Of a stretch of DNA of 64,000 nucleotides, positions 8,962 through 57,281 are shown in pieces (position 1 is the first letter of the stretch; the number at the start of each line of letters is the position of its first letter). The DNA lies in assembly GCA_001785865.1 (NCBI GenBank), contig MFUZ01000006.1, positions 242,315-306,314 on the forward strand. The letters run 5' to 3'. The stretch is from Candidatus Nomurabacteria bacterium RIFCSPLOWO2_01_FULL_41_18 (GTDB taxonomy: Bacteria > Patescibacteriota > Minisyncoccia > Phycocordibacterales > UBA9973). The notes under the pieces are model-generated. The model was not told the origin of the DNA. It saw only the letters and a list, made by a program, of their open reading frames with translations, and searched no databases. The position numbers and the translations under genes were made by a program.

Positions 8962-10104
8962 ATGGAAAAATTGATTAGCGGCCGAAACTACATAATGGAG
9001 AGAAAATACAAATGGATCATCAAGCCGATTTTGTTCAAATTTGATCCCGAAAACGTGCATGATAATATGGGCGTCGTCGGTCGTTGGCTCGGCAAACACT
9101 TCCTGACCCGTAAATTAGCGAGTTTATTTTGGAATTATTCAAATCCCGCACTGGAACAGAACATTCTCGGTATAAACTTCAAGAACCCGACAGGACTTTC
9201 GGCTGGTTTCGATAAGAATGCGGAATTGACCGAAATCATCTCTTCCATCAGTTTTGGCTTTATGGAAGTGGGCTCTATTACTGGTGAGGCCTGCGTAGGT
9301 AACCCCAAACCCCGGCTTTGGCGCTTGAAGAAATCGAGATCGCTCGCCGTAAATTACGGACTCATGAACGACGGCGCTGAAGCGATAGCCGAAAGATTGG
9401 GCAAGAAGCTCGAGGTGAAAAAATTCGATATCCCCGTCGGCATCAGTATCGCCAAAACAAATTGCAAAGACACAGTAGATACTGAAAAAGCCATCTTCGA
9501 TTATTTCAAGGCTTATCGAGCATTCATCGACATAGGCGACTATTTCACAATAAATATCAGCTGTCCGAACGCCTTTGGCGGACAGCCCTTCACCGACAGC
9601 ACCAAGCTCTACTTGCTGCTTTCGAAAATCATGTCCGTCCCGAAGACAAAACCTATTTTTATAAAATTATCCCCCGACTTAAAACAAAAAGAAATCAATG
9701 AAATACTAGATATTGCCGCAAAATGGAATGTGGACGGATTTATTTGCACAAATTTGACTAAAAATCGTAATAAAAAACAGAATAAAAACATTATAGATGA
9801 AAGCGTGCCGGAGTTAGGCGGACTGTCTGGGAAAGCAGTTGAAGATCTGTCGCTCGAACTGATCAGATATATTTATAAAAAAACAGGTGGAAAAGCAAGT
9901 AAATTTGTAATTATTGGCTGTGGTGGAGTCTTTAGCGCCGAAGATGCATACAAAAAAATAAAAGCCGGCGCTTCCCTCATCCAACTCATAACGGGAATGA
10001 TTTTCGAAGGCCCGCAACTAATTAGTGAAATAAATTTAGGATTAGTAAAACTCCTAAAAGCTGATGGTTATAAAAATATTTCTGAAGCAATTGGAAAAGA
10101 ATAG
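8962..10104 (+). CDS. pyrD: dihydroorotate dehydrogenase (quinone-type, class 2)
   Basis: N-terminal membrane-associated extension + NPTGLSAGFDKN and C-terminal GCGGVFSAEDAYKKIKAGASLIQL motifs. Confidence 0.75.
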   Translation: MEKLISGRNYIMERKYKWIIKPILFKFDPENVHDNMGVVGRWLGKHFLTRKLASLFWNYSNPALEQNILGINFKNPTGLSAGFDKNAELTEIISSISFGFMEVGSITGEACVGNPKPRLWRLKKSRSLAVNYGLMNDGAEAIAERLGKKLEVKKFDIPVGISIAKTNCKDTVDTEKAIFDYFKAYRAFIDIGDYFTINISCPNAFGGQPFTDSTKLYLLLSKIMSVPKTKPIFIKLSPDLKQKEINEILDIAAKWNVDGFICTNLTKNRNKKQNKNIIDESVPELGGLSGKAVEDLSLELIRYIYKKTGGKASKFVIIGCGGVFSAEDAYKKIKAGASLIQLITGMIFEGPQLISEINLGLVKLLKADGYKNISEAIGKE

Positions 10105-10106
10105 AA

Positions 10107-10138
10107 TTACGTAATGTATTACGTAATACATTACGTAA
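10107..10138. repeat. 32-bp perfect palindrome TTACGTAATGTATTACGTAATACATTACGTAA (copy 1) between convergent stops; probable bidirectional terminator
   Basis: Perfect self-complementarity; contains TACGTAA three times at 12-nt spacing; second near-identical copy at 56849-56882. Confidence 0.7.
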
Positions 10139-10146
10139 CTAAAATC

Positions 10147-11418
10147 TTATTTCTTCTTCAACAAAATCATCAAATCAGAAACGTTGGCCCCTGTTGCGCC
10201 GGTCATGATAATGTCGCCGGACTTTTGAAACACCGGGTAAGAATCGAAACGTTCTAGGTGATCATCGATATCTATACCTTGATTTTTTATTTTTTCAATA
10301 GTTTTTTTATCCGCTATGGCTCCAGCTGCATCGCTGTTGTCCATGCCGTCGGAAGCGAGAGAGACAAAGACCGAATCTTCGCCGATCATTCCTTTTTTGA
10401 TCACTCGGAGCGCCATATGGAGGTTTCTTCCGCCCTTTCCCCCTTTCCTTGCCACTTTTATTTCAGGCTCCCCAGCAGCCAAGACGGTAGTATCTGGGGC
10501 TTCCGCTTTAAAAATTTTCCCCACGGCAGAATCTATCTCATCATACATATCTGTGGATAAAATATTTGCTTTAAGGCCAAGTTCTTCCGACTTTTCGGCC
10601 ATCGCGCTTATGGCGGTCTTGTTTGAAACCAGGACAAAATTGCGTACTTTTTCAAAATATTTATCTTCTTTCGGAGTTTCTATCAGGTCGAATTTTCCCA
10701 AATTATATTTACGAATGATTTCTGCAGCATCCGCTACGGTACTCTCATCCTTGTAGGTGGGGCCTGAAGCGACATCAGCAAAATGATCCCCGGGTATATC
10801 GGAAAAAATAAGTCCGACGACATTGGCCGGATAAGCGACTTTGGCCAATCCCCCGCCTTTCAATATGGAAAGATGCTTCCGGACAGTATTTATTTCCTCG
10901 ATAGTGCCTCCACATTTCAAAAATTCATCATAGAGAGCCATATTTTGCTCGCACTCCTCTTTGGAATAGCAGAGCAAGGCAGAGCCACCGCCCGAGACAA
11001 GTACGATGATGAGATCATCTTCGCTTCCATTTTTCAATATTTCATATATTTTTTCACCGGCCTCTACATTCATCATACTCGGCCTCGGGTGGCTCCCGGC
11101 AAATACGTCGATATAGTCGAGGCTGATCTTGGCAAGTCCAACCACGGCGCCAGTTTCTATCTTCGGACCTAAAATTTTCTCCAACGCGAGAGCGGCACGG
11201 GCAGAAGCCTTGCCAAAACCGACAACTTTGATTTTTTTAAATTTCGACAGATCGAAACTCTCCCCCATTATGGTAAGTAGATCGCCCTCGGGCTTTACAA
11301 ATCGAGAAATTACTTCTTCGGTATCGATCGCCGATAGTCCCGCCTCAATGATAGCAAGAGCCAATTTACGATTTTCCGTTGTGGCGAGCTCGCCCTGATT
11401 TTTGATCCATCTTTTCAT
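10147..11418 (-). CDS. glycerate kinase, MOFRL family (glycerate 2-kinase-like)
   Basis: 423 aa; VVGFGKASARAA, VSGGGSALL, GGKGGRN motifs typical of MOFRL/DUF4147 glycerate kinases. Confidence 0.6.
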   Translation of the reverse strand: MKRWIKNQGELATTENRKLALAIIEAGLSAIDTEEVISRFVKPEGDLLTIMGESFDLSKFKKIKVVGFGKASARAALALEKILGPKIETGAVVGLAKISLDYIDVFAGSHPRPSMMNVEAGEKIYEILKNGSEDDLIIVLVSGGGSALLCYSKEECEQNMALYDEFLKCGGTIEEINTVRKHLSILKGGGLAKVAYPANVVGLIFSDIPGDHFADVASGPTYKDESTVADAAEIIRKYNLGKFDLIETPKEDKYFEKVRNFVLVSNKTAISAMAEKSEELGLKANILSTDMYDEIDSAVGKIFKAEAPDTTVLAAGEPEIKVARKGGKGGRNLHMALRVIKKGMIGEDSVFVSLASDGMDNSDAAGAIADKKTIEKIKNQGIDIDDHLERFDSYPVFQKSGDIIMTGATGANVSDLMILLKKK

Positions 11419-13077: not shown

Positions 13078-13208
13078 AAACTAGAAACTCGTTGCAGGCG
13101 TACTTTTTAGAAAGCCTTGCGCAGGCGGACGCGCCGAGCAGTTCGCTCCGCAAGCTTGCGGAGATAGATTGCTTTATAAAAAGTATGCCAAGAAAGAGTT
13201 TCTAGTTT
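13078..13208. repeat. GC-rich ~130-bp nested inverted-repeat element (terminal 13-bp IR AAACTAGAAACTC/GAGTTTCTAGTTT)
   Basis: Outer perfect 13-bp IR, second IR GTACTTTTTAGAAAGC/GCTTTATAAAAAGTA(T), central 18-bp perfect palindrome CTCCGCAAGCTTGCGGAG; overlaps lepA stop. Confidence 0.5.
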
Positions 13209-15136
13209 TCCCCGCTACGCATCATCTTCAAAAATACGTCTTGGGGAATGTTTACTTTGCCTCTTTCTTTCATTTTCTTTTTGCCTTTCTTTTGTTTCTC
13301 ACGAAGTTTCATTTTGCGAGTTATATCACCTCCATACATATGTGCAGTAACATCTTTTTTCATACCAGAAAGCGTGCGTGATGAGATGATGCGTCCAAAT
13401 GCTTTACCTTGGATTTTCAAAGTAAACATTTGCCTAGGCAACAAGCTCTCTAATTTTACAACAGACTCTTCGGCTTCTATTTCTACCCTTTTCTTTGAGA
13501 CAACTTTAGAAAAAGCTGGTACAGGTTCATCGGCAACCAACACATCAAGTCGGGTGACATCTGCTTCACGATTTTCGGCTATATTGTAAGATATTGATCC
13601 ATAGCCAGATGAAGTGCTTTTTAGTTCATCAAAGAAATTGCGCATCAATTCACGAAGCGGCATTTTTACAGATATAGATGAACGGTTGTCTCCGAAATTC
13701 TCAGTCTCCCCTACTTCTGCTTCATGATCAAACAATATCTGCATAATGTTACCTAGATATTCCACAGGAGTGATTATTTTTGCATTTACCCACGGCTCAA
13801 AAATAGTTTTAATATTACTGTCATCTGGAAAAAAGTACGGCGAATAAATCTTCTGCCTCTTCGGCAGATCGCCGATGAGGCGATTTCCAACATTAGTATT
13901 ATATTCTACTTCATATACGATAGAGGGCGTAGTGATGACAAGATTCAAATTAAATTCTCGCTTCAGTCTTTCAGTAATGATTTCTAAATGAAGCATTCCA
14001 AGAAAACCACAGCGAAAACCTCGCCCCAGAGATCCTGAAGATTCTTCTTCAAAAGAAAAAGACGAATCTGAAAGTTTTAGTTTTCCTAAAGAAAGCTTTA
14101 GTAAGGCAAAATCGTCCGCATCCTCGGGAAAAACACTCGCCCAAACCACCGGCATCGGCTGCATATATCCCGGAAGTGCAGGCAGTGGATTCGCAGATTT
14201 TGTAATCGTATCTCCAACAGAAGCAATACCAGGCTTTTTTATGCCTGTGACAATATAGCCGGTATCTCCAGCTGAGAGACTGTCTCGTGGAGTTTCTTCT
14301 GGTGAAAAAGTCCCGACCTCAAGCGCTGTAAATTTTTCCCCTGAGACAGCAAAAAGCAAGCTGTCACCCCGCCTCACCTTACCATCAAATAACCTCACAA
14401 AAACTATTACCCCTTTATGATTTGAATATTTAAAATCAAACACTAAAGCGCTCAAAACATTTTCACTTTTATTTTCATTTTTATAATTTTCAATTGGCGC
14501 CGGAACACGTTTTATAACTTCCTTTAAAAGATTTTCCACCCCTTCTCCTGTGCGACCTGAAACTAAAAGCACTTCATTTGGATCGCAATTTAAAAGTTTT
14601 ACCACTTCTTCTTTTACTTCCGACACCCTAGCCAAAGGTGAATCAATTTTAGAAAGGACAGGAATTATTACAGAGGCCCCTTCACCTCTCCCATTGCCAG
14701 AGCGGGGTAGGCGAGCCATAGCGAGCGTGGTAAGCGTCTGCGCCTGCACCCCCTGTGTGGAGTCAACCAGTAAAATAGACCCTTCCACGGCCTTCAGAGC
14801 CCTAGAGACTTCATAAGAAAAATCCACGTGTCCGGGAGTGTCAATGAGATTCAGTATGTAAACCTCATCCCCCGCCTTCTCCTGGGGGGAGAAGGAGCCC
14901 CCTCGCCTTCCAGGAGAGGGGTTAGGGGTGAGGTGGGTGGTGTATTCCATGCGAACGGGTTGCATTTTGATTGTAATACCTCGTTCACGCTCAAGCTCCA
15001 TAGAGTCTAGTACTTGATCACGCATTTTTCGCGCTTCTACTGTATGCGTGATCTCGAGCATTCTGTCTGCCAAAGTACTTTTGCCATGGTCTATGTGGGC
15101 GATTATTGAAAAGTTTCTGATGTGTTTTAGGTCCAT
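13202..15136 (-). CDS. lepA: elongation factor 4 (LepA)
   Basis: NFSIIAHIDHGKSTLADR, DTPGHVDF, full five-domain EF4 layout; carries ~20-aa GC-rich in-frame insert (LTPNPSPGRRGGSFSPQEKAG). Confidence 0.9.
   Translation of the reverse strand: MDLKHIRNFSIIAHIDHGKSTLADRMLEITHTVEARKMRDQVLDSMELERERGITIKMQPVRMEYTTHLTPNPSPGRRGGSFSPQEKAGDEVYILNLIDTPGHVDFSYEVSRALKAVEGSILLVDSTQGVQAQTLTTLAMARLPRSGNGRGEGASVIIPVLSKIDSPLARVSEVKEEVVKLLNCDPNEVLLVSGRTGEGVENLLKEVIKRVPAPIENYKNENKSENVLSALVFDFKYSNHKGVIVFVRLFDGKVRRGDSLLFAVSGEKFTALEVGTFSPEETPRDSLSAGDTGYIVTGIKKPGIASVGDTITKSANPLPALPGYMQPMPVVWASVFPEDADDFALLKLSLGKLKLSDSSFSFEEESSGSLGRGFRCGFLGMLHLEIITERLKREFNLNLVITTPSIVYEVEYNTNVGNRLIGDLPKRQKIYSPYFFPDDSNIKTIFEPWVNAKIITPVEYLGNIMQILFDHEAEVGETENFGDNRSSISVKMPLRELMRNFFDELKSTSSGYGSISYNIAENREADVTRLDVLVADEPVPAFSKVVSKKRVEIEAEESVVKLESLLPRQMFTLKIQGKAFGRIISSRTLSGMKKDVTAHMYGGDITRKMKLREKQKKGKKKMKERGKVNIPQDVFLKMMRSGEN
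14868..14940 (-). repeat. in-frame GC-rich palindromic element inside lepA (two hairpin units: CCTTCTCC-TGGGG-GGAGAAGG and CCCCTCGCCTTCCAGGAGAGGGGTTAGGGGTGAGG)
   Basis: Sequence family shared with copies in leuS (28866-28908) and giant protein gene (21118-21160); absent from E. coli LepA at this position. Confidence 0.7.
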
Positions 15137-20983: not shown

Positions 20984-25261
<4,278 letters not shown>

Positions 25262-28017: not shown

Positions 28018-30558
28018 CTAAATCACAATGTTGACAAGCCTGTTTTTCACATAAATCATCTTTTTGACGTCTTTTCCTGCAATATGCCTCACAACAGTTT
28101 CATTCTCCAGAGCTTTTTTCTTTATGCTTTCTTCTGTTTCATCTGCCTGCACAAAAATTTCAGCTCTAACTTTTCCATTTATTTGTATTACAATTTTAAT
28201 TTCTTCATCTTTTATTAAATTCTCATCCCATTTTGGCCAATTGGAGAGATTGATCGAATCCTTCTCTCCTAGAAGGCTCCATAATTCTTCGGTCATATGC
28301 GGTGCGAATGGTGAGAGAACTTGCAGAAATTTTTTATAATCTTCCACTGAAACATTTTCAGCTTTTTCCATCTCTGTCGCCAGAATCATCATGGAAGAGA
28401 TTGCGGTATTGAAATTCATACCCTCTATATCTTCAGAAACTTTTTTTATGGTTTTGTGCAATAACCGAACCAGTGGAGAATTTTTTGACATTCCGGAAGA
28501 ATTATTAAATTTCAAAACTTTCTCCCCTATCCTCCAAACTTTTTCAATAAATCTTCTAGCTCCGATAATGCTTTCCGTAGACCAAGCCACGGACTGATCA
28601 AACGGCCCCATAAACATTTCATAAACTCGAAGTGTATCTGCGCCATAGGTTTTCACAATGTCATCCGGGTTAATTACATTTCCAAGAGACTTGGACATTT
28701 TGACTCCCCCTTCACCCAAGATCATCCCATGCGAAGTACGCTTCATGTATGGCTCGTTTGTAGGCACAAGTTTCAAATCAAAAAGAAATTTATGCCAAAA
28801 ACGAGAATACAAAAGATGCAGAGTCGTGTGTTCATTTCCGCCGTTGTACCAGTCTACTCCACCCGTATTTCCCCCTCTCCTTTCAGGAGAGGGCTGGGGT
28901 GAGGTTAACCAGTATTTTAAATTTTTCTTGCTTGCAAATTCTTTATTATTTTTCGCATCAGCATATCGCAAATAATACCAAGAACTTCCAGCCCAGTTTG
29001 GCATGGTGTCTGTTTCTCTTTTTGCTTTACCAAGGCACTTTGGACATTTCACATTTACCCATTTTGAAATGTTTGCGAGTGGTGATTCGCCACTATCCGT
29101 CGGCTGATAATTCTTAACTTTTGGTAATTCCACCGGCAAATCTTTTTCTGGAACTGGAACTACCCCACAATCTTGGCAATGTATAACTGGTATGGGCTCA
29201 CCCCAGTATCGCTGTCTAGAAAAAATCCAGTCACGAAGTTTGAAGGTCGTCTTTCTAGAAGCGGCACTCTCTGAACTTAACCAATCAATAATTTTAGGTC
29301 GAGCTTCTGCTGAAGTTAAACCATCAAATTGTTTAGAATTAAAAAGCACACCTTCACCTTCGTAACATTCTTCCATGTTTTTTATTTTCTCAAAAAGTGA
29401 TTCGTCTTTGGATTTGATCGAAACCTTGAGAGGAATATTATATTTTTTCGCCATATCAAAATCCCTTTTATCATGAGCATCAGCAAATACAGCGCCAGTC
29501 CCATAATGAACTAACACAAAATCTGATACCCAAACTGGTATTTCTTCTTTGGTTGCTGGATTAATGACCCTGACACCCTTTAATTCAATTCCCGTTTTAT
29601 TACTTTCTGCTGTTCTCTCAACTTCTGGTCTATTTTTAACTTCTTTAATATATTTTTCAACTTCATTCCAGTTTAAAATACTATTTTTGTATTCTTGAAT
29701 AAATGAATGTTCGGGAGCTAAAACAATAAAAGTACAAGAAAAAATTGTATCGACACGAGTAGTAAAAACTTTTATAGCTAGGTCTTGTCTAGCTGAAACT
29801 TTAAACTCTATTTCTGCGCCTTCACTTTTCCCTATCCAATTCCTCTGCCCAAGCTTAATTTGTGGAAGATAATTTACATCATCTAAATCTTTATAAAGCC
29901 TATCGGCGTATTTTGTAATCGCTAGCATCCATTGCTCTTTCTCCCTTTTTTCCACTGCAGTCCCACAACGTTCACAAACGCCAGCTTGCCCTGAGCCTGT
30001 CGAACGGGTTACAACTTCTTCATTCGCAAGTCCAATTTTATCCTTCGGGCACCAGTTTATCGTCATCTTCGCTTTGTAAGCTAAACCTTTTTTCAAAAAT
30101 TGTAAAAATATCCACTGTGTCCATTTGTAATATTTTGGATCAGTGGTATTTATTTCTCGCGACCAATCAAAAGAAATACCGAGTGACTTTATCTGTCTGC
30201 GAAAAGTATCACTATTTTTCTTGGTAACTATCCGTGGATCTTTGCCTGTTTTTATTGCAAAGTTTTCTGTCGGCAATCCAAATGCATCCCAACCTATAGG
30301 ATACAAAACATTAAAACCTTCTAGCCTTCTTTTTCTAGAAATAATATCCATCCCTATGTAAGGCCTTGGATGCCCTACATGAAGACCGTCTCCAGAAGGA
30401 TATGGAAACTCTATCAAGCCATAGAATTTCGGCTTGATCGCAGACTTACTCAGACTGGACGCGGACTGACGCGGAAAATCTTTTGCATAATATATTCCAT
30501 TTTTGTCCCAGATAGTCTGCCATTTACTTTCTATCTTTAAGTGGTTATATTCCTTCAT
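28018..30558 (-). CDS. leuS: leucine--tRNA ligase
   Basis: FPYPSGDGLHVGHPRPY HIGH region, KMSKSLGN, editing domain; carries 16-aa GC-rich insert TSPQPSPERRGGNTGG. Confidence 0.9.
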   Translation of the reverse strand: MKEYNHLKIESKWQTIWDKNGIYYAKDFPRQSASSLSKSAIKPKFYGLIEFPYPSGDGLHVGHPRPYIGMDIISRKRRLEGFNVLYPIGWDAFGLPTENFAIKTGKDPRIVTKKNSDTFRRQIKSLGISFDWSREINTTDPKYYKWTQWIFLQFLKKGLAYKAKMTINWCPKDKIGLANEEVVTRSTGSGQAGVCERCGTAVEKREKEQWMLAITKYADRLYKDLDDVNYLPQIKLGQRNWIGKSEGAEIEFKVSARQDLAIKVFTTRVDTIFSCTFIVLAPEHSFIQEYKNSILNWNEVEKYIKEVKNRPEVERTAESNKTGIELKGVRVINPATKEEIPVWVSDFVLVHYGTGAVFADAHDKRDFDMAKKYNIPLKVSIKSKDESLFEKIKNMEECYEGEGVLFNSKQFDGLTSAEARPKIIDWLSSESAASRKTTFKLRDWIFSRQRYWGEPIPVIHCQDCGVVPVPEKDLPVELPKVKNYQPTDSGESPLANISKWVNVKCPKCLGKAKRETDTMPNWAGSSWYYLRYADAKNNKEFASKKNLKYWLTSPQPSPERRGGNTGGVDWYNGGNEHTTLHLLYSRFWHKFLFDLKLVPTNEPYMKRTSHGMILGEGGVKMSKSLGNVINPDDIVKTYGADTLRVYEMFMGPFDQSVAWSTESIIGARRFIEKVWRIGEKVLKFNNSSGMSKNSPLVRLLHKTIKKVSEDIEGMNFNTAISSMMILATEMEKAENVSVEDYKKFLQVLSPFAPHMTEELWSLLGEKDSINLSNWPKWDENLIKDEEIKIVIQINGKVRAEIFVQADETEESIKKKALENETVVRHIAGKDVKKMIYVKNRLVNIVI
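28866..28908 (-). repeat. in-frame GC-rich palindromic element copy (CCCCCTCTCCTTTCAGGAGAGGGCTGGGGTGAGG) in leuS
   Basis: 9-bp perfect IR CCTCTCCT/AGGAGAGG plus GGGGTGAGG tail; absent from E. coli LeuRS between YWLP and VD(I/W)Y. Confidence 0.7.
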
Positions 30559-55999: not shown

Positions 56000-56857
56000 A
56001 TGGATAAATTAAGCTTTGTATTTTGGGGAACACCCGATGTAGCCTCTGAGACACTTGAAACCTTAAAGCAAGCTAGATTTTTACCGTCTTTGATTGTTAC
56101 ATCTCCAGATGCAAAAAAAGGGAGAGGCATGCATATGGAAGCATCCCCCGTAGCCATTTTTGCAGAACAAAATAAAATACCTTGTCTTAAACCCGAAAAA
56201 CTTGACGAAGAATTTTGTAATAAACTAAAGCCTAGCTGTCTAAAGCCTAATTGCCTATTTATTGTGGTTGCTTACGGCAAAATAATACCTGAAAATATTA
56301 TAAATATGCCGAAATTGGGCTCTATCAATATACATTATTCACTTCTCCCAAAATATCGTGGAGCTTCTCCTGTAGAATCTGCGATCTTAAACGGAGATAC
56401 GGAAACAGGAGTGACTATACAAAAAATGGTATATAAATTGGATGCAGGAAACATATTAGCGCAAGAAAAGGTGCAAATATCGCCTGATGAAACAGCTCCA
56501 GAATTAAGAAAAAAATTAATTAAAATAGGTGGAGAACTTTTGGTAAAAACTTTAGGAACCCCCTCCTTCCTCCCCCTTATCAAGGGGGAGGTGCCGAAAG
56601 TGGTAGGGATCGAGCAAGATGAATCTCAAGCCACATTTTGCAAAAAAATTAAAAAAGAAGACGGACTGATAGATTTAAATGCCGATGCAGTTACAAACTA
56701 TAATAAATGGAGAGCCTATGTCTTTTGGCCAAGAACTTTCTTTTTTGTAAATGGAAAGAGAATAATAGTTACTGACGCAAAGCTTATAGATGGAAAGTTT
56801 GTGATTAAAAAAATCATTCCAGAAAACGGAAAAGAAATGAATTACAAAGTTACGTAA
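56000..56857 (+). CDS. fmt: methionyl-tRNA formyltransferase
   Basis: N-terminal formyltransferase (NIHYSLLPKYRGASPVESAILNGD) and C-terminal domain; small GC hairpin insert at 56569-56591. Confidence 0.85.
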   Translation: MDKLSFVFWGTPDVASETLETLKQARFLPSLIVTSPDAKKGRGMHMEASPVAIFAEQNKIPCLKPEKLDEEFCNKLKPSCLKPNCLFIVVAYGKIIPENIINMPKLGSINIHYSLLPKYRGASPVESAILNGDTETGVTIQKMVYKLDAGNILAQEKVQISPDETAPELRKKLIKIGGELLVKTLGTPSFLPLIKGEVPKVVGIEQDESQATFCKKIKKEDGLIDLNADAVTNYNKWRAYVFWPRTFFFVNGKRIIVTDAKLIDGKFVIKKIIPENGKEMNYKVT

Positions 56858-56882
56858 TGTATTACGTAATACATTACGTAAC
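56849..56882. repeat. 34-bp perfect palindrome GTTACGTAATGTATTACGTAATACATTACGTAAC (copy 2) overlapping fmt and hpf stop codons
   Basis: Identical 32-bp core to copy at 10107-10138; same convergent-gene context. Confidence 0.7.
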
Positions 56883-57281
56883 TTAATACTTCGAAGTAAA
56901 AGGATTTCGTTTTGAGAGACCCTTCATCATCTTTTTGACACTGCGGGCTCCGCGATACAAGAGCGTCTGACTGCGATCTTTGTTTTTATTTATTTCGTAG
57001 TAGAGAGTGTCTTTAATGGCATCTATCGCCTGATATAAATCTTCCTTATCAGAGCTAGAATAAAATTCTTTGCCGTCTATCTTGATCAGACAATCTGCAT
57101 GGAAAACCTCGCCTGATTTATGATGATTTGTGGACTTGCCTACTTCGAAATTTACCATCACCTTTCCTCCCCCTTCTTTTATCCTGGTAAGAAGCTTTTC
57201 CAAGTTGGTAACCCTCTTCAAAACATAGTCTTTTATAGCTTCAGTTAATTCAATATTTTTACCCTGTAAATTGATTTGCAT
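56883..57281 (-). CDS. hpf: ribosome hibernation promoting factor (HPF/RaiA/YfiA family)
   Basis: MQINLQGKNIELTEAIKDYV... typical RaiA fold signature. Confidence 0.8.
   Translation of the reverse strand: MQINLQGKNIELTEAIKDYVLKRVTNLEKLLTRIKEGGGKVMVNFEVGKSTNHHKSGEVFHADCLIKIDGKEFYSSSDKEDLYQAIDAIKDTLYYEINKNKDRSQTLLYRGARSVKKMMKGLSKRNPFTSKY

Follow-up and report, generated by a model that had tools for sequence, protein, structure and literature searches.

An in-frame insert in leuS of a Nomurabacteria genome as a probable passenger copy of a BoxC/PIT/TMECO-like triplex repeat associated with DUF559 genes

Introduction

The gene for leucyl-tRNA synthetase (LeuRS) of Candidatus Nomurabacteria bacterium RIFCSPLOWO2_01_FULL_41_18, a candidate phyla radiation (CPR) bacterium, contains a short GC-rich palindrome that leaves the reading frame intact, which raises the question of what this sequence is and how it came to lie inside an essential translation gene. 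The gene, leuS, is part of a 64-kb stretch of contig MFUZ01000006.1 (positions 242,315 to 306,314 of the forward strand; assembly GCA_001785865.1), called here the window, and all coordinates given without another locus name are those of the window. An initial annotation had described the leuS palindrome as an in-frame insertion of an element also found in lepA.

We consider it probable that leuS carries, as a translated passenger, one copy of a dispersed repeat of the intrastrand-triplex class, the spread of which may be tied to DUF559 elements. We observed that the segment belongs to a described motif class, that this motif is multicopy, that the leuS copy is in frame and absent from most orthologues, that it is conserved at the nucleotide level, and that related motifs bracket DUF559 genes.

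The leuS insert and its reading frame

The leuS open reading frame (ORF; 28018-30558, minus strand) encodes 846 aa and is assigned to LeuRS by homology (E = 6e-206 against Thermus thermophilus LeuRS). Its product matches the LeuRS of 'Candidatus Nomurabacteria bacterium RIFCSPHIGHO2_01_FULL_42_15' with 100% identity. Within the gene, the 34-mer CCCCCTCTCCTTTCAGGAGAGGGCTGGGGTGAGG occurs at 28871-28904 on the plus strand; this is its single occurrence in the window, and 100 shuffled sequences gave no match. The 34-mer contains a perfect 9-bp inverted repeat, CCCTCTCCT (28873-28881) and AGGAGAGGG (28885-28893), around a 3-nt loop, TTC, and the hairpin is accompanied by the 9-mer GGGGTGAGG. The initial annotation was right about the 9-bp inverted repeat, the arms of which it wrote as 8-mers. 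The window has 15 perfect GC-rich hairpins with stems of 7 bp or more, compared with 2.25 +/- 1.3 in shuffled sequence. By itself, GGGGTGAGG is not significantly enriched in the window (10 observed versus 5.7 expected), and the excess over chance is a property of the composite motif.

On the coding strand, positions 28905-28858 read ACC TCA CCC CAG CCC TCT CCT GAA AGG AGA GGG GGA AAT ACG GGT GGA and encode TSPQPSPERRGGNTGG. This insert is 48 nt long, a multiple of three, and adds 16 residues without a stop codon, so that the ORF runs unbroken across it. In alignments, a 15-residue gap was found opposite the insert in the LeuRS of T. thermophilus (W529|M530), of Neisseria gonorrhoeae and of Escherichia coli (YWLP|VDIYIGGIEH, L522-V524), placing it between YW(L/M)P and VD.YIGG.EH of the reference enzymes. 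The alignments bear out the proposal of an in-frame insertion between YWL and VDWYNGGNEH, at a point where the E. coli protein is contiguous. The extent of the insertion needs revision: the repeat itself is a core of 39 nt, or 13 codons (28867-28905, minus strand; ACCTCACCCCAGCCCTCTCCTGAAAGGAGAGGGGGAAAT, encoding TSPQPSPERRGGN), and the trailing codons ACG GGT GGA (TGG) at 28858-28866 on the minus strand belong to the host loop, their synonymous sites diverging among relatives.

With an unbroken ORF in an essential single gene, the insert is presumably translated and tolerated. An intein or homing endonuclease at this site was rejected, as the 16-residue insert holds no domain; programmed translational bypass of the byp or T4 gene 60 kind, and splicing, were rejected because the frame is intact through the 48 nt.

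An intrastrand-triplex motif of the BoxC/PIT/TMECO class

The repeats known as BoxC and PIT are reportedly the subject of earlier literature, by Bachellier in the 1990s and by Hoyne & Maher in 2000. Holder et al. 2015 (PMC4666352) described a conserved G/C-rich 'intrastrand triplex motif', 5'-CCCTCNCCC N3-6 GGGNGAGGG N3 GGGNGAGGG, with 9-nt blocks, and gave the motif formerly called BoxC and PIT the name TMECO. In their definition, a pyrimidine block is followed by a Watson-Crick complementary purine block and by a second, mirror-symmetric purine block, giving a class II triplex with G·G-C, A·A-T and T·A-T triplets; loop 1 has 3-6 nt and loop 2 about 3 nt (PMC4666352). The E. coli consensus forms a triplex as single-stranded DNA in vitro, as seen by circular dichroism and nuclear magnetic resonance, and all 23 copies in E. 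coli K-12 were reported to be intergenic (PMC4666352).

The leuS element has the same three-block architecture. Its motif occupies 28873-28904 on the plus strand, which is the G-rich strand and the template strand of leuS, and consists of the pyrimidine block CCCTCTCC (28873-28880), the purine block GGAGAGGG (28886-28893) and the mirror purine block GGGTGAGG (28897-28904). Blocks 1 and 2 are separated by the loop TTTCA (5 nt) and blocks 2 and 3 by the loop CTG (3 nt), both of the defined length, and 8/8 base pairs and 8/8 triplets are of the allowed kinds (G·G-C, A·A-T, T·A-T). The strict TMECO pattern is missed by one base, the first block being CCCTCTCCT with triplex pairing over 8 nt. On its blocks and loops, the leuS element is a close variant of the BoxC/PIT/TMECO class, not the E. 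coli consensus. A scan of the window with Rfam gathering thresholds returned four tRNAs only and no match at the leuS element.

The likeness to BoxC/PIT/TMECO extends beyond the near-identical blocks, since the copies described here are also multicopy, occur singly or as inverted pairs and show local indel variability; the copy in lepA shares the TTA loop of type A with that class. The host differs, being an AT-rich CPR bacterium, unlike the E. coli carriers, and the location of the copies relative to genes differs as set out below.

Dispersed copies in the window and in other genomes

A finder was written for the geometry of the triplex motif and was run with shuffled sequence as control. It located five motifs in the window and none in 10 shuffles. 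All five lie inside ORFs: two in lepA and one each in a surface-protein gene, leuS and fmt. The lepA motifs form an inverted pair (14863-14932, minus strand) in the ORF 13202-15136 (minus strand), where they encode LTPNPSPGRRGG-SFSPQEKAGDEV. The surface-protein motif (21123-21156, plus strand) lies in a 1425-aa ORF (20984-25261, minus strand) and encodes TSPQPSPGEGEGE, and the fmt motif (56558-56590, minus strand; CTCCCCCT / AGGGGGAG / GAGGGGGT) is in frame in the ORF 56000-56857 (plus strand) and encodes GTPSFLPLIKGEV. The gene fmt, for methionyl-tRNA formyltransferase, is the third translation-related gene with the motif and was absent from the list in the initial annotation. That list had given leuS and lepA the same element; the two copies are of one family without being identical, as the loops and one arm base differ and lepA holds an inverted pair. 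The window is about 91% coding, and with all copies in ORFs this means that the motif does not avoid genes.

In related leuS loci amounting to 406 kb, the finder detected 34 triplex motifs, compared with none in shuffled sequence. Every one of the 34 lies in an ORF of 304 codons or more, and they cluster in seven genomes. In contrast to the TMECO copies of E. coli K-12, the five window copies and the 34 copies in relatives are thus in ORFs and in frame. The peptide of the lepA-type pair, ..PSPGRRGG-SFSPQEKAGDEV, was also found at a second LeuRS site in the relatives L001, L003 and L160, and in an LTD/PKD protein of L001. The presence of the same DNA in unrelated genes and positions indicates a proliferating element and not a feature of a protein.

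To judge the wider range of the motif, the pattern CCTCACCCC-N1-4-CCCTCTCC was searched in one genome per species, which gave at least 147 matches in at least 120 stretches. Their sources were Proteobacteria, Bacteroidota, Planctomycetota, Chloroflexota, Verrucomicrobiota, Cyanobacteria and others. Nearly all of the at least 147 matches listed also had the 3' arm GGAGAGGG, which lies outside the search pattern. The recurrence of pattern and 3' arm in many phyla makes this a pan-bacterial motif class, and not a CPR invention.

Nucleotide-level conservation of the core

The same 39-nt core is found at the same leuS codon in three other Nomurabacteria, L001, L002 and L003, the LeuRS of which are 73-79% identical to that of the window. 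Among these four carrier genomes, it is the most conserved 39-nt segment of leuS, with 37/39 positions invariant. In the six pairwise comparisons, a synonymous difference was seen in 0 of 11-13 core codons, while outside the core 43-49% of codons for identical amino acids and 59-69% of four-fold sites differed, the latter being saturated. The two changes within the core among the four genomes are both non-synonymous, and the codons just 3' of it (TGG) diverge normally. With synonymous sites frozen and the changes non-synonymous, ordinary protein-level selection is excluded as the cause of core conservation.

These data bear on the idea that the insert forms an adaptive loop of LeuRS specific to the lineage, for example one that contacts tRNA or a partner, kept by protein-level selection with the palindromic DNA incidental. 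The position of the insert beside a conserved catalytic strand and its retention in four genomes would fit such a loop, but the pattern of substitution is the opposite of what protein-level selection leaves. The same DNA is moreover present in lepA, the surface-protein gene and other genes, and half of the close relatives lack the insert while others have unrelated sequence in its place. We regard an adaptive loop as very unlikely.

A second alternative is that the nucleic-acid structure has a local function in cis in leuS, for example as an mRNA hairpin that either pauses ribosomes to allow co-translational folding or makes the mRNA more stable, or as a binding site in DNA for a factor. It draws support from nucleotide conservation of the core in excess of the rest of leuS, and from the predicted mRNA fold, which is stable and nested (-27.9 kcal/mol, z = -2.9). 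However, copies of the same subtype elsewhere (L003 6524 and L204 2847) differ no more from the leuS copy than same-site copies differ among themselves, which makes the conservation a property of the family that extends to unrelated genes and positions. For two of four window copies, the predicted fold does not surpass that of shuffled sequences (z = -0.2 and -1.3), the leuS site is empty in about half of the relatives, and PIT elements showed neither promoter nor terminator activity in E. coli (PMC4666352). A cis function in leuS therefore appears unlikely.

For the preferred interpretation as a copy of a dispersed repeat, the core may represent either an old insertion under nucleotide-level constraint or a conserved master sequence that inserted repeatedly or recently. 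The two origins are inseparable because paralogous copies are as similar as same-site copies.

The insertion site among related LeuRS

The site of the leuS insert was surveyed in 120 LeuRS proteins of Paceibacteria/Nomurabacteria and in 80 further metagenomic loci. About half of the 120 proteins have an insert-free site (YW-TP-VDWYNGG), and many relatives have a short LG.DP..GG loop at the codon of the leuS insert. At least 11 other inserts, of 2-50 aa and for the most part palindromic in DNA, were found at the same codon. The alleles of L124 and L125 are inverted pairs of triplex motifs, and those of L128 and L132 are other perfect hairpins. In L133, the site holds a tandemly duplicated 72-nt multi-hairpin palindrome that encodes VDPVRERSPQGDRSTASGRAFSN(E/G); this palindrome is of another repeat family, with further members in P0021, P0091 and P0077. 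The natural variation among relatives marks the position as a permissive, unstable loop. In an AlphaFold2 (AF2) model of the window LeuRS with a mean predicted local distance difference test score (pLDDT) of 73, residues 551-566 are modelled as coil with pLDDT 32-40.

The diversity of alleles could also be taken to mean that errors of replication that generate hairpins (template switching or quasi-palindrome formation) created the insert in situ, at a fragile G-rich tract of glycine codons. Many palindromes, the tandem duplication of L133 and short palindromic forms all occur at this exact codon in relatives, the host GGT GGA codons (ACG GGT GGA TGG) can pair with CTCACCC as an outer mRNA stem, and TMECO sites have been reported as hot spots of deletion and rearrangement (PMC4666352). 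De novo events, however, would not remake the identical 39-nt sequence and loops of other loci and genomes, nor would they yield block sequences that are pan-bacterial, and we consider an origin in situ improbable. An assembly or sequencing artefact was also considered, as the source is a metagenome-assembled genome. The same insert is present at the same codon in independent ENA, NCBI and JGI assemblies, the protein cluster is found on 7 contigs and the frame is preserved, which makes the chance of an artefact negligible.

Two further GC-rich inserts are present in the window LeuRS. One, TRSTGSGQ, occupies 8 codons in the ZN1 region (29986-30009, minus strand; ACCCGTTCGACAGGCTCAGGGCAA) and has no triplex motif; the other, RQSASSLSKSA, is near the N-terminus (about 30432-30470, minus strand). 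Both are absent from most relatives and from solved LeuRS structures, and both are of another sequence type (the 'TGSGQA' kind; compare AKLITGQAS in P0011). Repeats of the TRSTGSGQ-encoding insert (GGCTCAGGGCAAGC) in the window did not exceed chance, and neither insert recurs there. Like the insert studied here, these two (residues ~29-41 and 183-190) fall in coil segments of the AF2 model with pLDDT <50. Two other features of LeuRS architecture were observed. The window LeuRS lacks the leucine-specific domain that precedes KMSKS in the E. coli and T. thermophilus enzymes, the gap in alignments being ~43-57 residues (window residues ~616-617 versus E. coli 569-611), and many relatives have a NUDIX domain inserted in the editing region.

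Association of the motif with DUF559 genes

Nine of the 120 LeuRS proteins (P0017, P0030, P0033, P0037, P0040, P0060, P0092, P0107 and P0113) carry an in-frame DUF559 (PF04480) domain, at a site different from that of the leuS insert studied here and bounded exactly by triplex motifs. Aligned to the window LeuRS, the DUF559 insert starts with the motif peptide (N)PSP(A/T)LPEGEG and ends with (V/A)LSFGE(G/D)LGGV. What was inserted is therefore DUF559 between two motifs in inverted orientation, [motif]-DUF559-[motif]. Mapping at the DNA level gave the order motif, alpha/beta-hydrolase-like module, motif, DUF559, motif in L003 (3711-4798), and motif, DUF559, motif, motif in L124 (1492-1978); the LeuRS of P0017 also has an alpha/beta-hydrolase-like module besides DUF559. 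A triplex-type insert at the leuS site was present in 6/9 LeuRS with DUF559 and in 6/111 without it (Fisher p = 2e-5).

The association was also seen outside LeuRS. Among the at least 120 loci listed that had been chosen for the motif, tblastn found DUF559 genes in seven, from Variovorax, Acinetobacter, a betaproteobacterium, Cytophagales, Verrucomicrobia and two others. All seven genes lie no more than about 100 nt from the motif, a proximity with a probability by chance of about 1e-8, and five are flanked on both sides. Conversely, when DUF559 genes were picked by protein homology only, 8/8 distinct genes had motifs on both sides; they came from a CPR genome, Breznakibacter, Flaviaesturariibacter, Phormidium, Prevotella, Prevotellaceae, Paludibacteraceae and one other source. 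At 7/8 of these loci the flanking motifs are inverted in the same way; within a locus the flank sequences match, and between loci they differ. In a Prevotella DUF559-IspF fusion (L209 1150-1626, ~297 aa), the two domains are joined in frame by the downstream triplex motif. Many similar fusions, with IspF, an epimerase, RNase H or MetH, were noted among DUF559 homologues.

In E. coli K-12, the spacer between fabI and ycjD contains a TMECO/BoxC copy, which is 168 nt downstream of ycjD (NC_000913 ~1351205-1351238; L208 5206-5239), and ycjD is annotated as 'DUF559 domain-containing protein'. The probability of such proximity by chance is about 0.005. DUF559 falls in the Vsr/DUF559 PD-(D/E)XK clade together with the homing endonuclease I-Bth0305I (PMC3424549); the closest solved structure that we found, 3hrl from N. 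gonorrhoeae, is of a protein of unknown function.

Other repeats in the window

An AT-rich nested palindrome, TTACGTAATGTATTACGTAATACATTACGTAAC, was found at 10097-10148 and at 56839-56892; the two copies are 91-93% identical and 46.7 kb apart, and the second spans the fmt stop codon (ORF end 56857) and the spacer beyond. At the 3' end of lepA, an imperfect inverted repeat (13078-13208) with 38-nt arms that are 84% complementary surrounds a GC-rich palindrome (13113-13163). Its right arm covers the stop codon (13202-13204), and it may be a terminator or another type of repeat. Adjoining the triplex motif of the surface-protein gene, positions 21160-21200 hold a short tandem repeat of the GGTTCTGGCTCTGGC type that encodes (PE)n.

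Discussion

The probable history of the leuS insert can be outlined as follows. A copy of a GC-rich hairpin and intrastrand-triplex repeat would have become fixed, in frame and free of stop codons, in a permissive LeuRS loop before the VDWYNGG.EH strand of the catalytic core. It would be transcribed and translated as a flexible passenger of 13 residues rich in Pro, Ser, Arg and Gly, neither spliced nor bypassed and without a role in LeuRS function. DUF559 elements, which are Vsr-like PD-(D/E)XK elements bracketed by inverted motifs, may help copies to spread or persist, and single motifs and inverted pairs, as in leuS and lepA, would be non-autonomous remnants or 'empty cassettes' of [motif]-DUF559-[motif] units. 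The reported local instability of DNA at the motifs may contribute to the hypervariability of the LeuRS loop among relatives.

That DUF559 endonuclease elements spread or maintain the copies is a tentative proposal, drawn by analogy with REP/RAYT systems, MITEs (miniature inverted-repeat transposable elements) or homing, and we hold it to be a serious possibility just short of probable. We would give similar standing to a broader conjecture, in which BoxC/PIT/TMECO repeats could stem from a pan-bacterial selfish element, as its terminal repeats and its non-autonomous derivatives. The autonomous form would carry DUF559 (Vsr-fold, EDxHD-like) with YcjD as its resident in E. coli, and its units in CPR bacteria would insert in frame into conserved essential genes, sometimes carrying domains (DUF559, alpha/beta-hydrolase-like) and leaving single motifs.

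Several points weigh against the interpretation of the leuS segment as a translated passenger of a mobile repeat. By tblastn, no DUF559 gene or Y1 transposase was found in the 64-kb window, and a search for the hydrolase module there was likewise negative. Near TMECO, Holder et al. saw no genes for mobility, and the triplex escaped their detection in vivo (PMC4666352). No relative is closer than about 75% identity, so that no recent pair of filled and empty sites documents an insertion, and neither a target-site duplication nor defined ends could be identified. In the neighbour-joining tree of the 120 LeuRS, which is star-like, carriers are scattered, and one ancient insertion followed by losses is inseparable from repeated insertion. 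Translation of the leuS insert is inferred from sequence, and exposure of the loop has weak support in the AF2 model, since pLDDT is <50 over the whole segment 521-575.

Comparison with known systems places the leuS insert among several kinds of short repeat. Rickettsia palindromic elements (RPEs) are selfish palindromic repeats of 100-150 bp that lie in frame in essential genes and are translated and tolerated at the protein surface; they were reportedly described by Ogata et al. in 2000. The leuS insert resembles them as an in-frame, presumably translated palindromic repeat in an essential protein gene, but RPEs, as they are described, are set apart by their length compared with the 39-nt core, by their restriction to Rickettsia and by the lack of triplex symmetry. 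RPEs receive mention in passages of PMC10969869 and PMC1458961.

In fungal mitochondria, GC clusters or double-hairpin elements and 'byp' elements are likewise short GC-rich palindromes that invade coding regions of AT-rich genomes. Compared by description, byp elements disrupt the reading frame and ribosomes skip over them, while the leuS insert keeps the frame, and sequences and hosts are unrelated.

Repetitive extragenic palindromic (REP) sequences and REPINs are short GC-rich hairpins that flank the gene of the enzyme presumed to mobilize them, a RAYT (Y1) transposase (PMC3116915, PMC3733652). The triplex copies are similar in being GC-rich hairpins, single or in inverted doublets, that flank an enzyme gene and co-vary in sequence with it. 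They differ in lacking the GTAG/CGTC tag and in that the flanked gene encodes a DUF559 PD-(D/E)XK protein and no Y1 transposase. Involvement of a RAYT was rejected, as tblastn with the Y1_Tnp protein of L003 gave no match in the window or the other loci. The gene itself in this motif-rich relative (PF01797, IS200/IS605- or RAYT-type; L003 1-607) lies 2.4 kb upstream of leuS and has no flanking triplex motifs. Set beside MITEs, which have terminal inverted repeats, a target-site duplication and a cognate transposase, inverted motif pairs occur in lepA, at the leuS site of L124 and L125 and around DUF559 genes, the leuS copy is a single motif, and no target-site duplication was definable.

Homing endonucleases of the EDxHD/Vsr fold, such as I-Bth0305I (PMC3239194), share the PD-(D/E)XK clade with DUF559. 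The LeuRS-borne DUF559 domains retain E-x-D-G-D-x-H-D and occur at recurrent sites in conserved essential genes. In contrast to I-Bth0305I, they have no surrounding intron or intein and appear to be read through in the host protein; they are known here from sequence.

Three points are new, the motif class itself being known: the repeat lives in frame within genes of a CPR bacterium, one LeuRS codon is used recurrently, and there is an association with DUF559. Searches of the literature library used here found no work linking DUF559 or ycjD with BoxC or triplex motifs and no in-frame palindromic elements in CPR bacteria, and the [motif]-DUF559-[motif] arrangement appears to be unreported.

A class of repeat described as strictly intergenic in E. 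coli K-12 would thus be able to sit in essential genes and be translated. The situation of the Rickettsia RPEs would then be part of a wider phenomenon that reaches CPR bacteria, and such translated repeats would account for part of the odd low-complexity insertions in CPR proteins. The origin of BoxC/PIT/TMECO has been unexplained since the 1990s, and DUF559 endonucleases, including E. coli YcjD, are a candidate for the missing mobility or maintenance factor of these repeats. Finally, the units found in LeuRS suggest a route by which whole domains may be inserted in frame into housekeeping enzymes.

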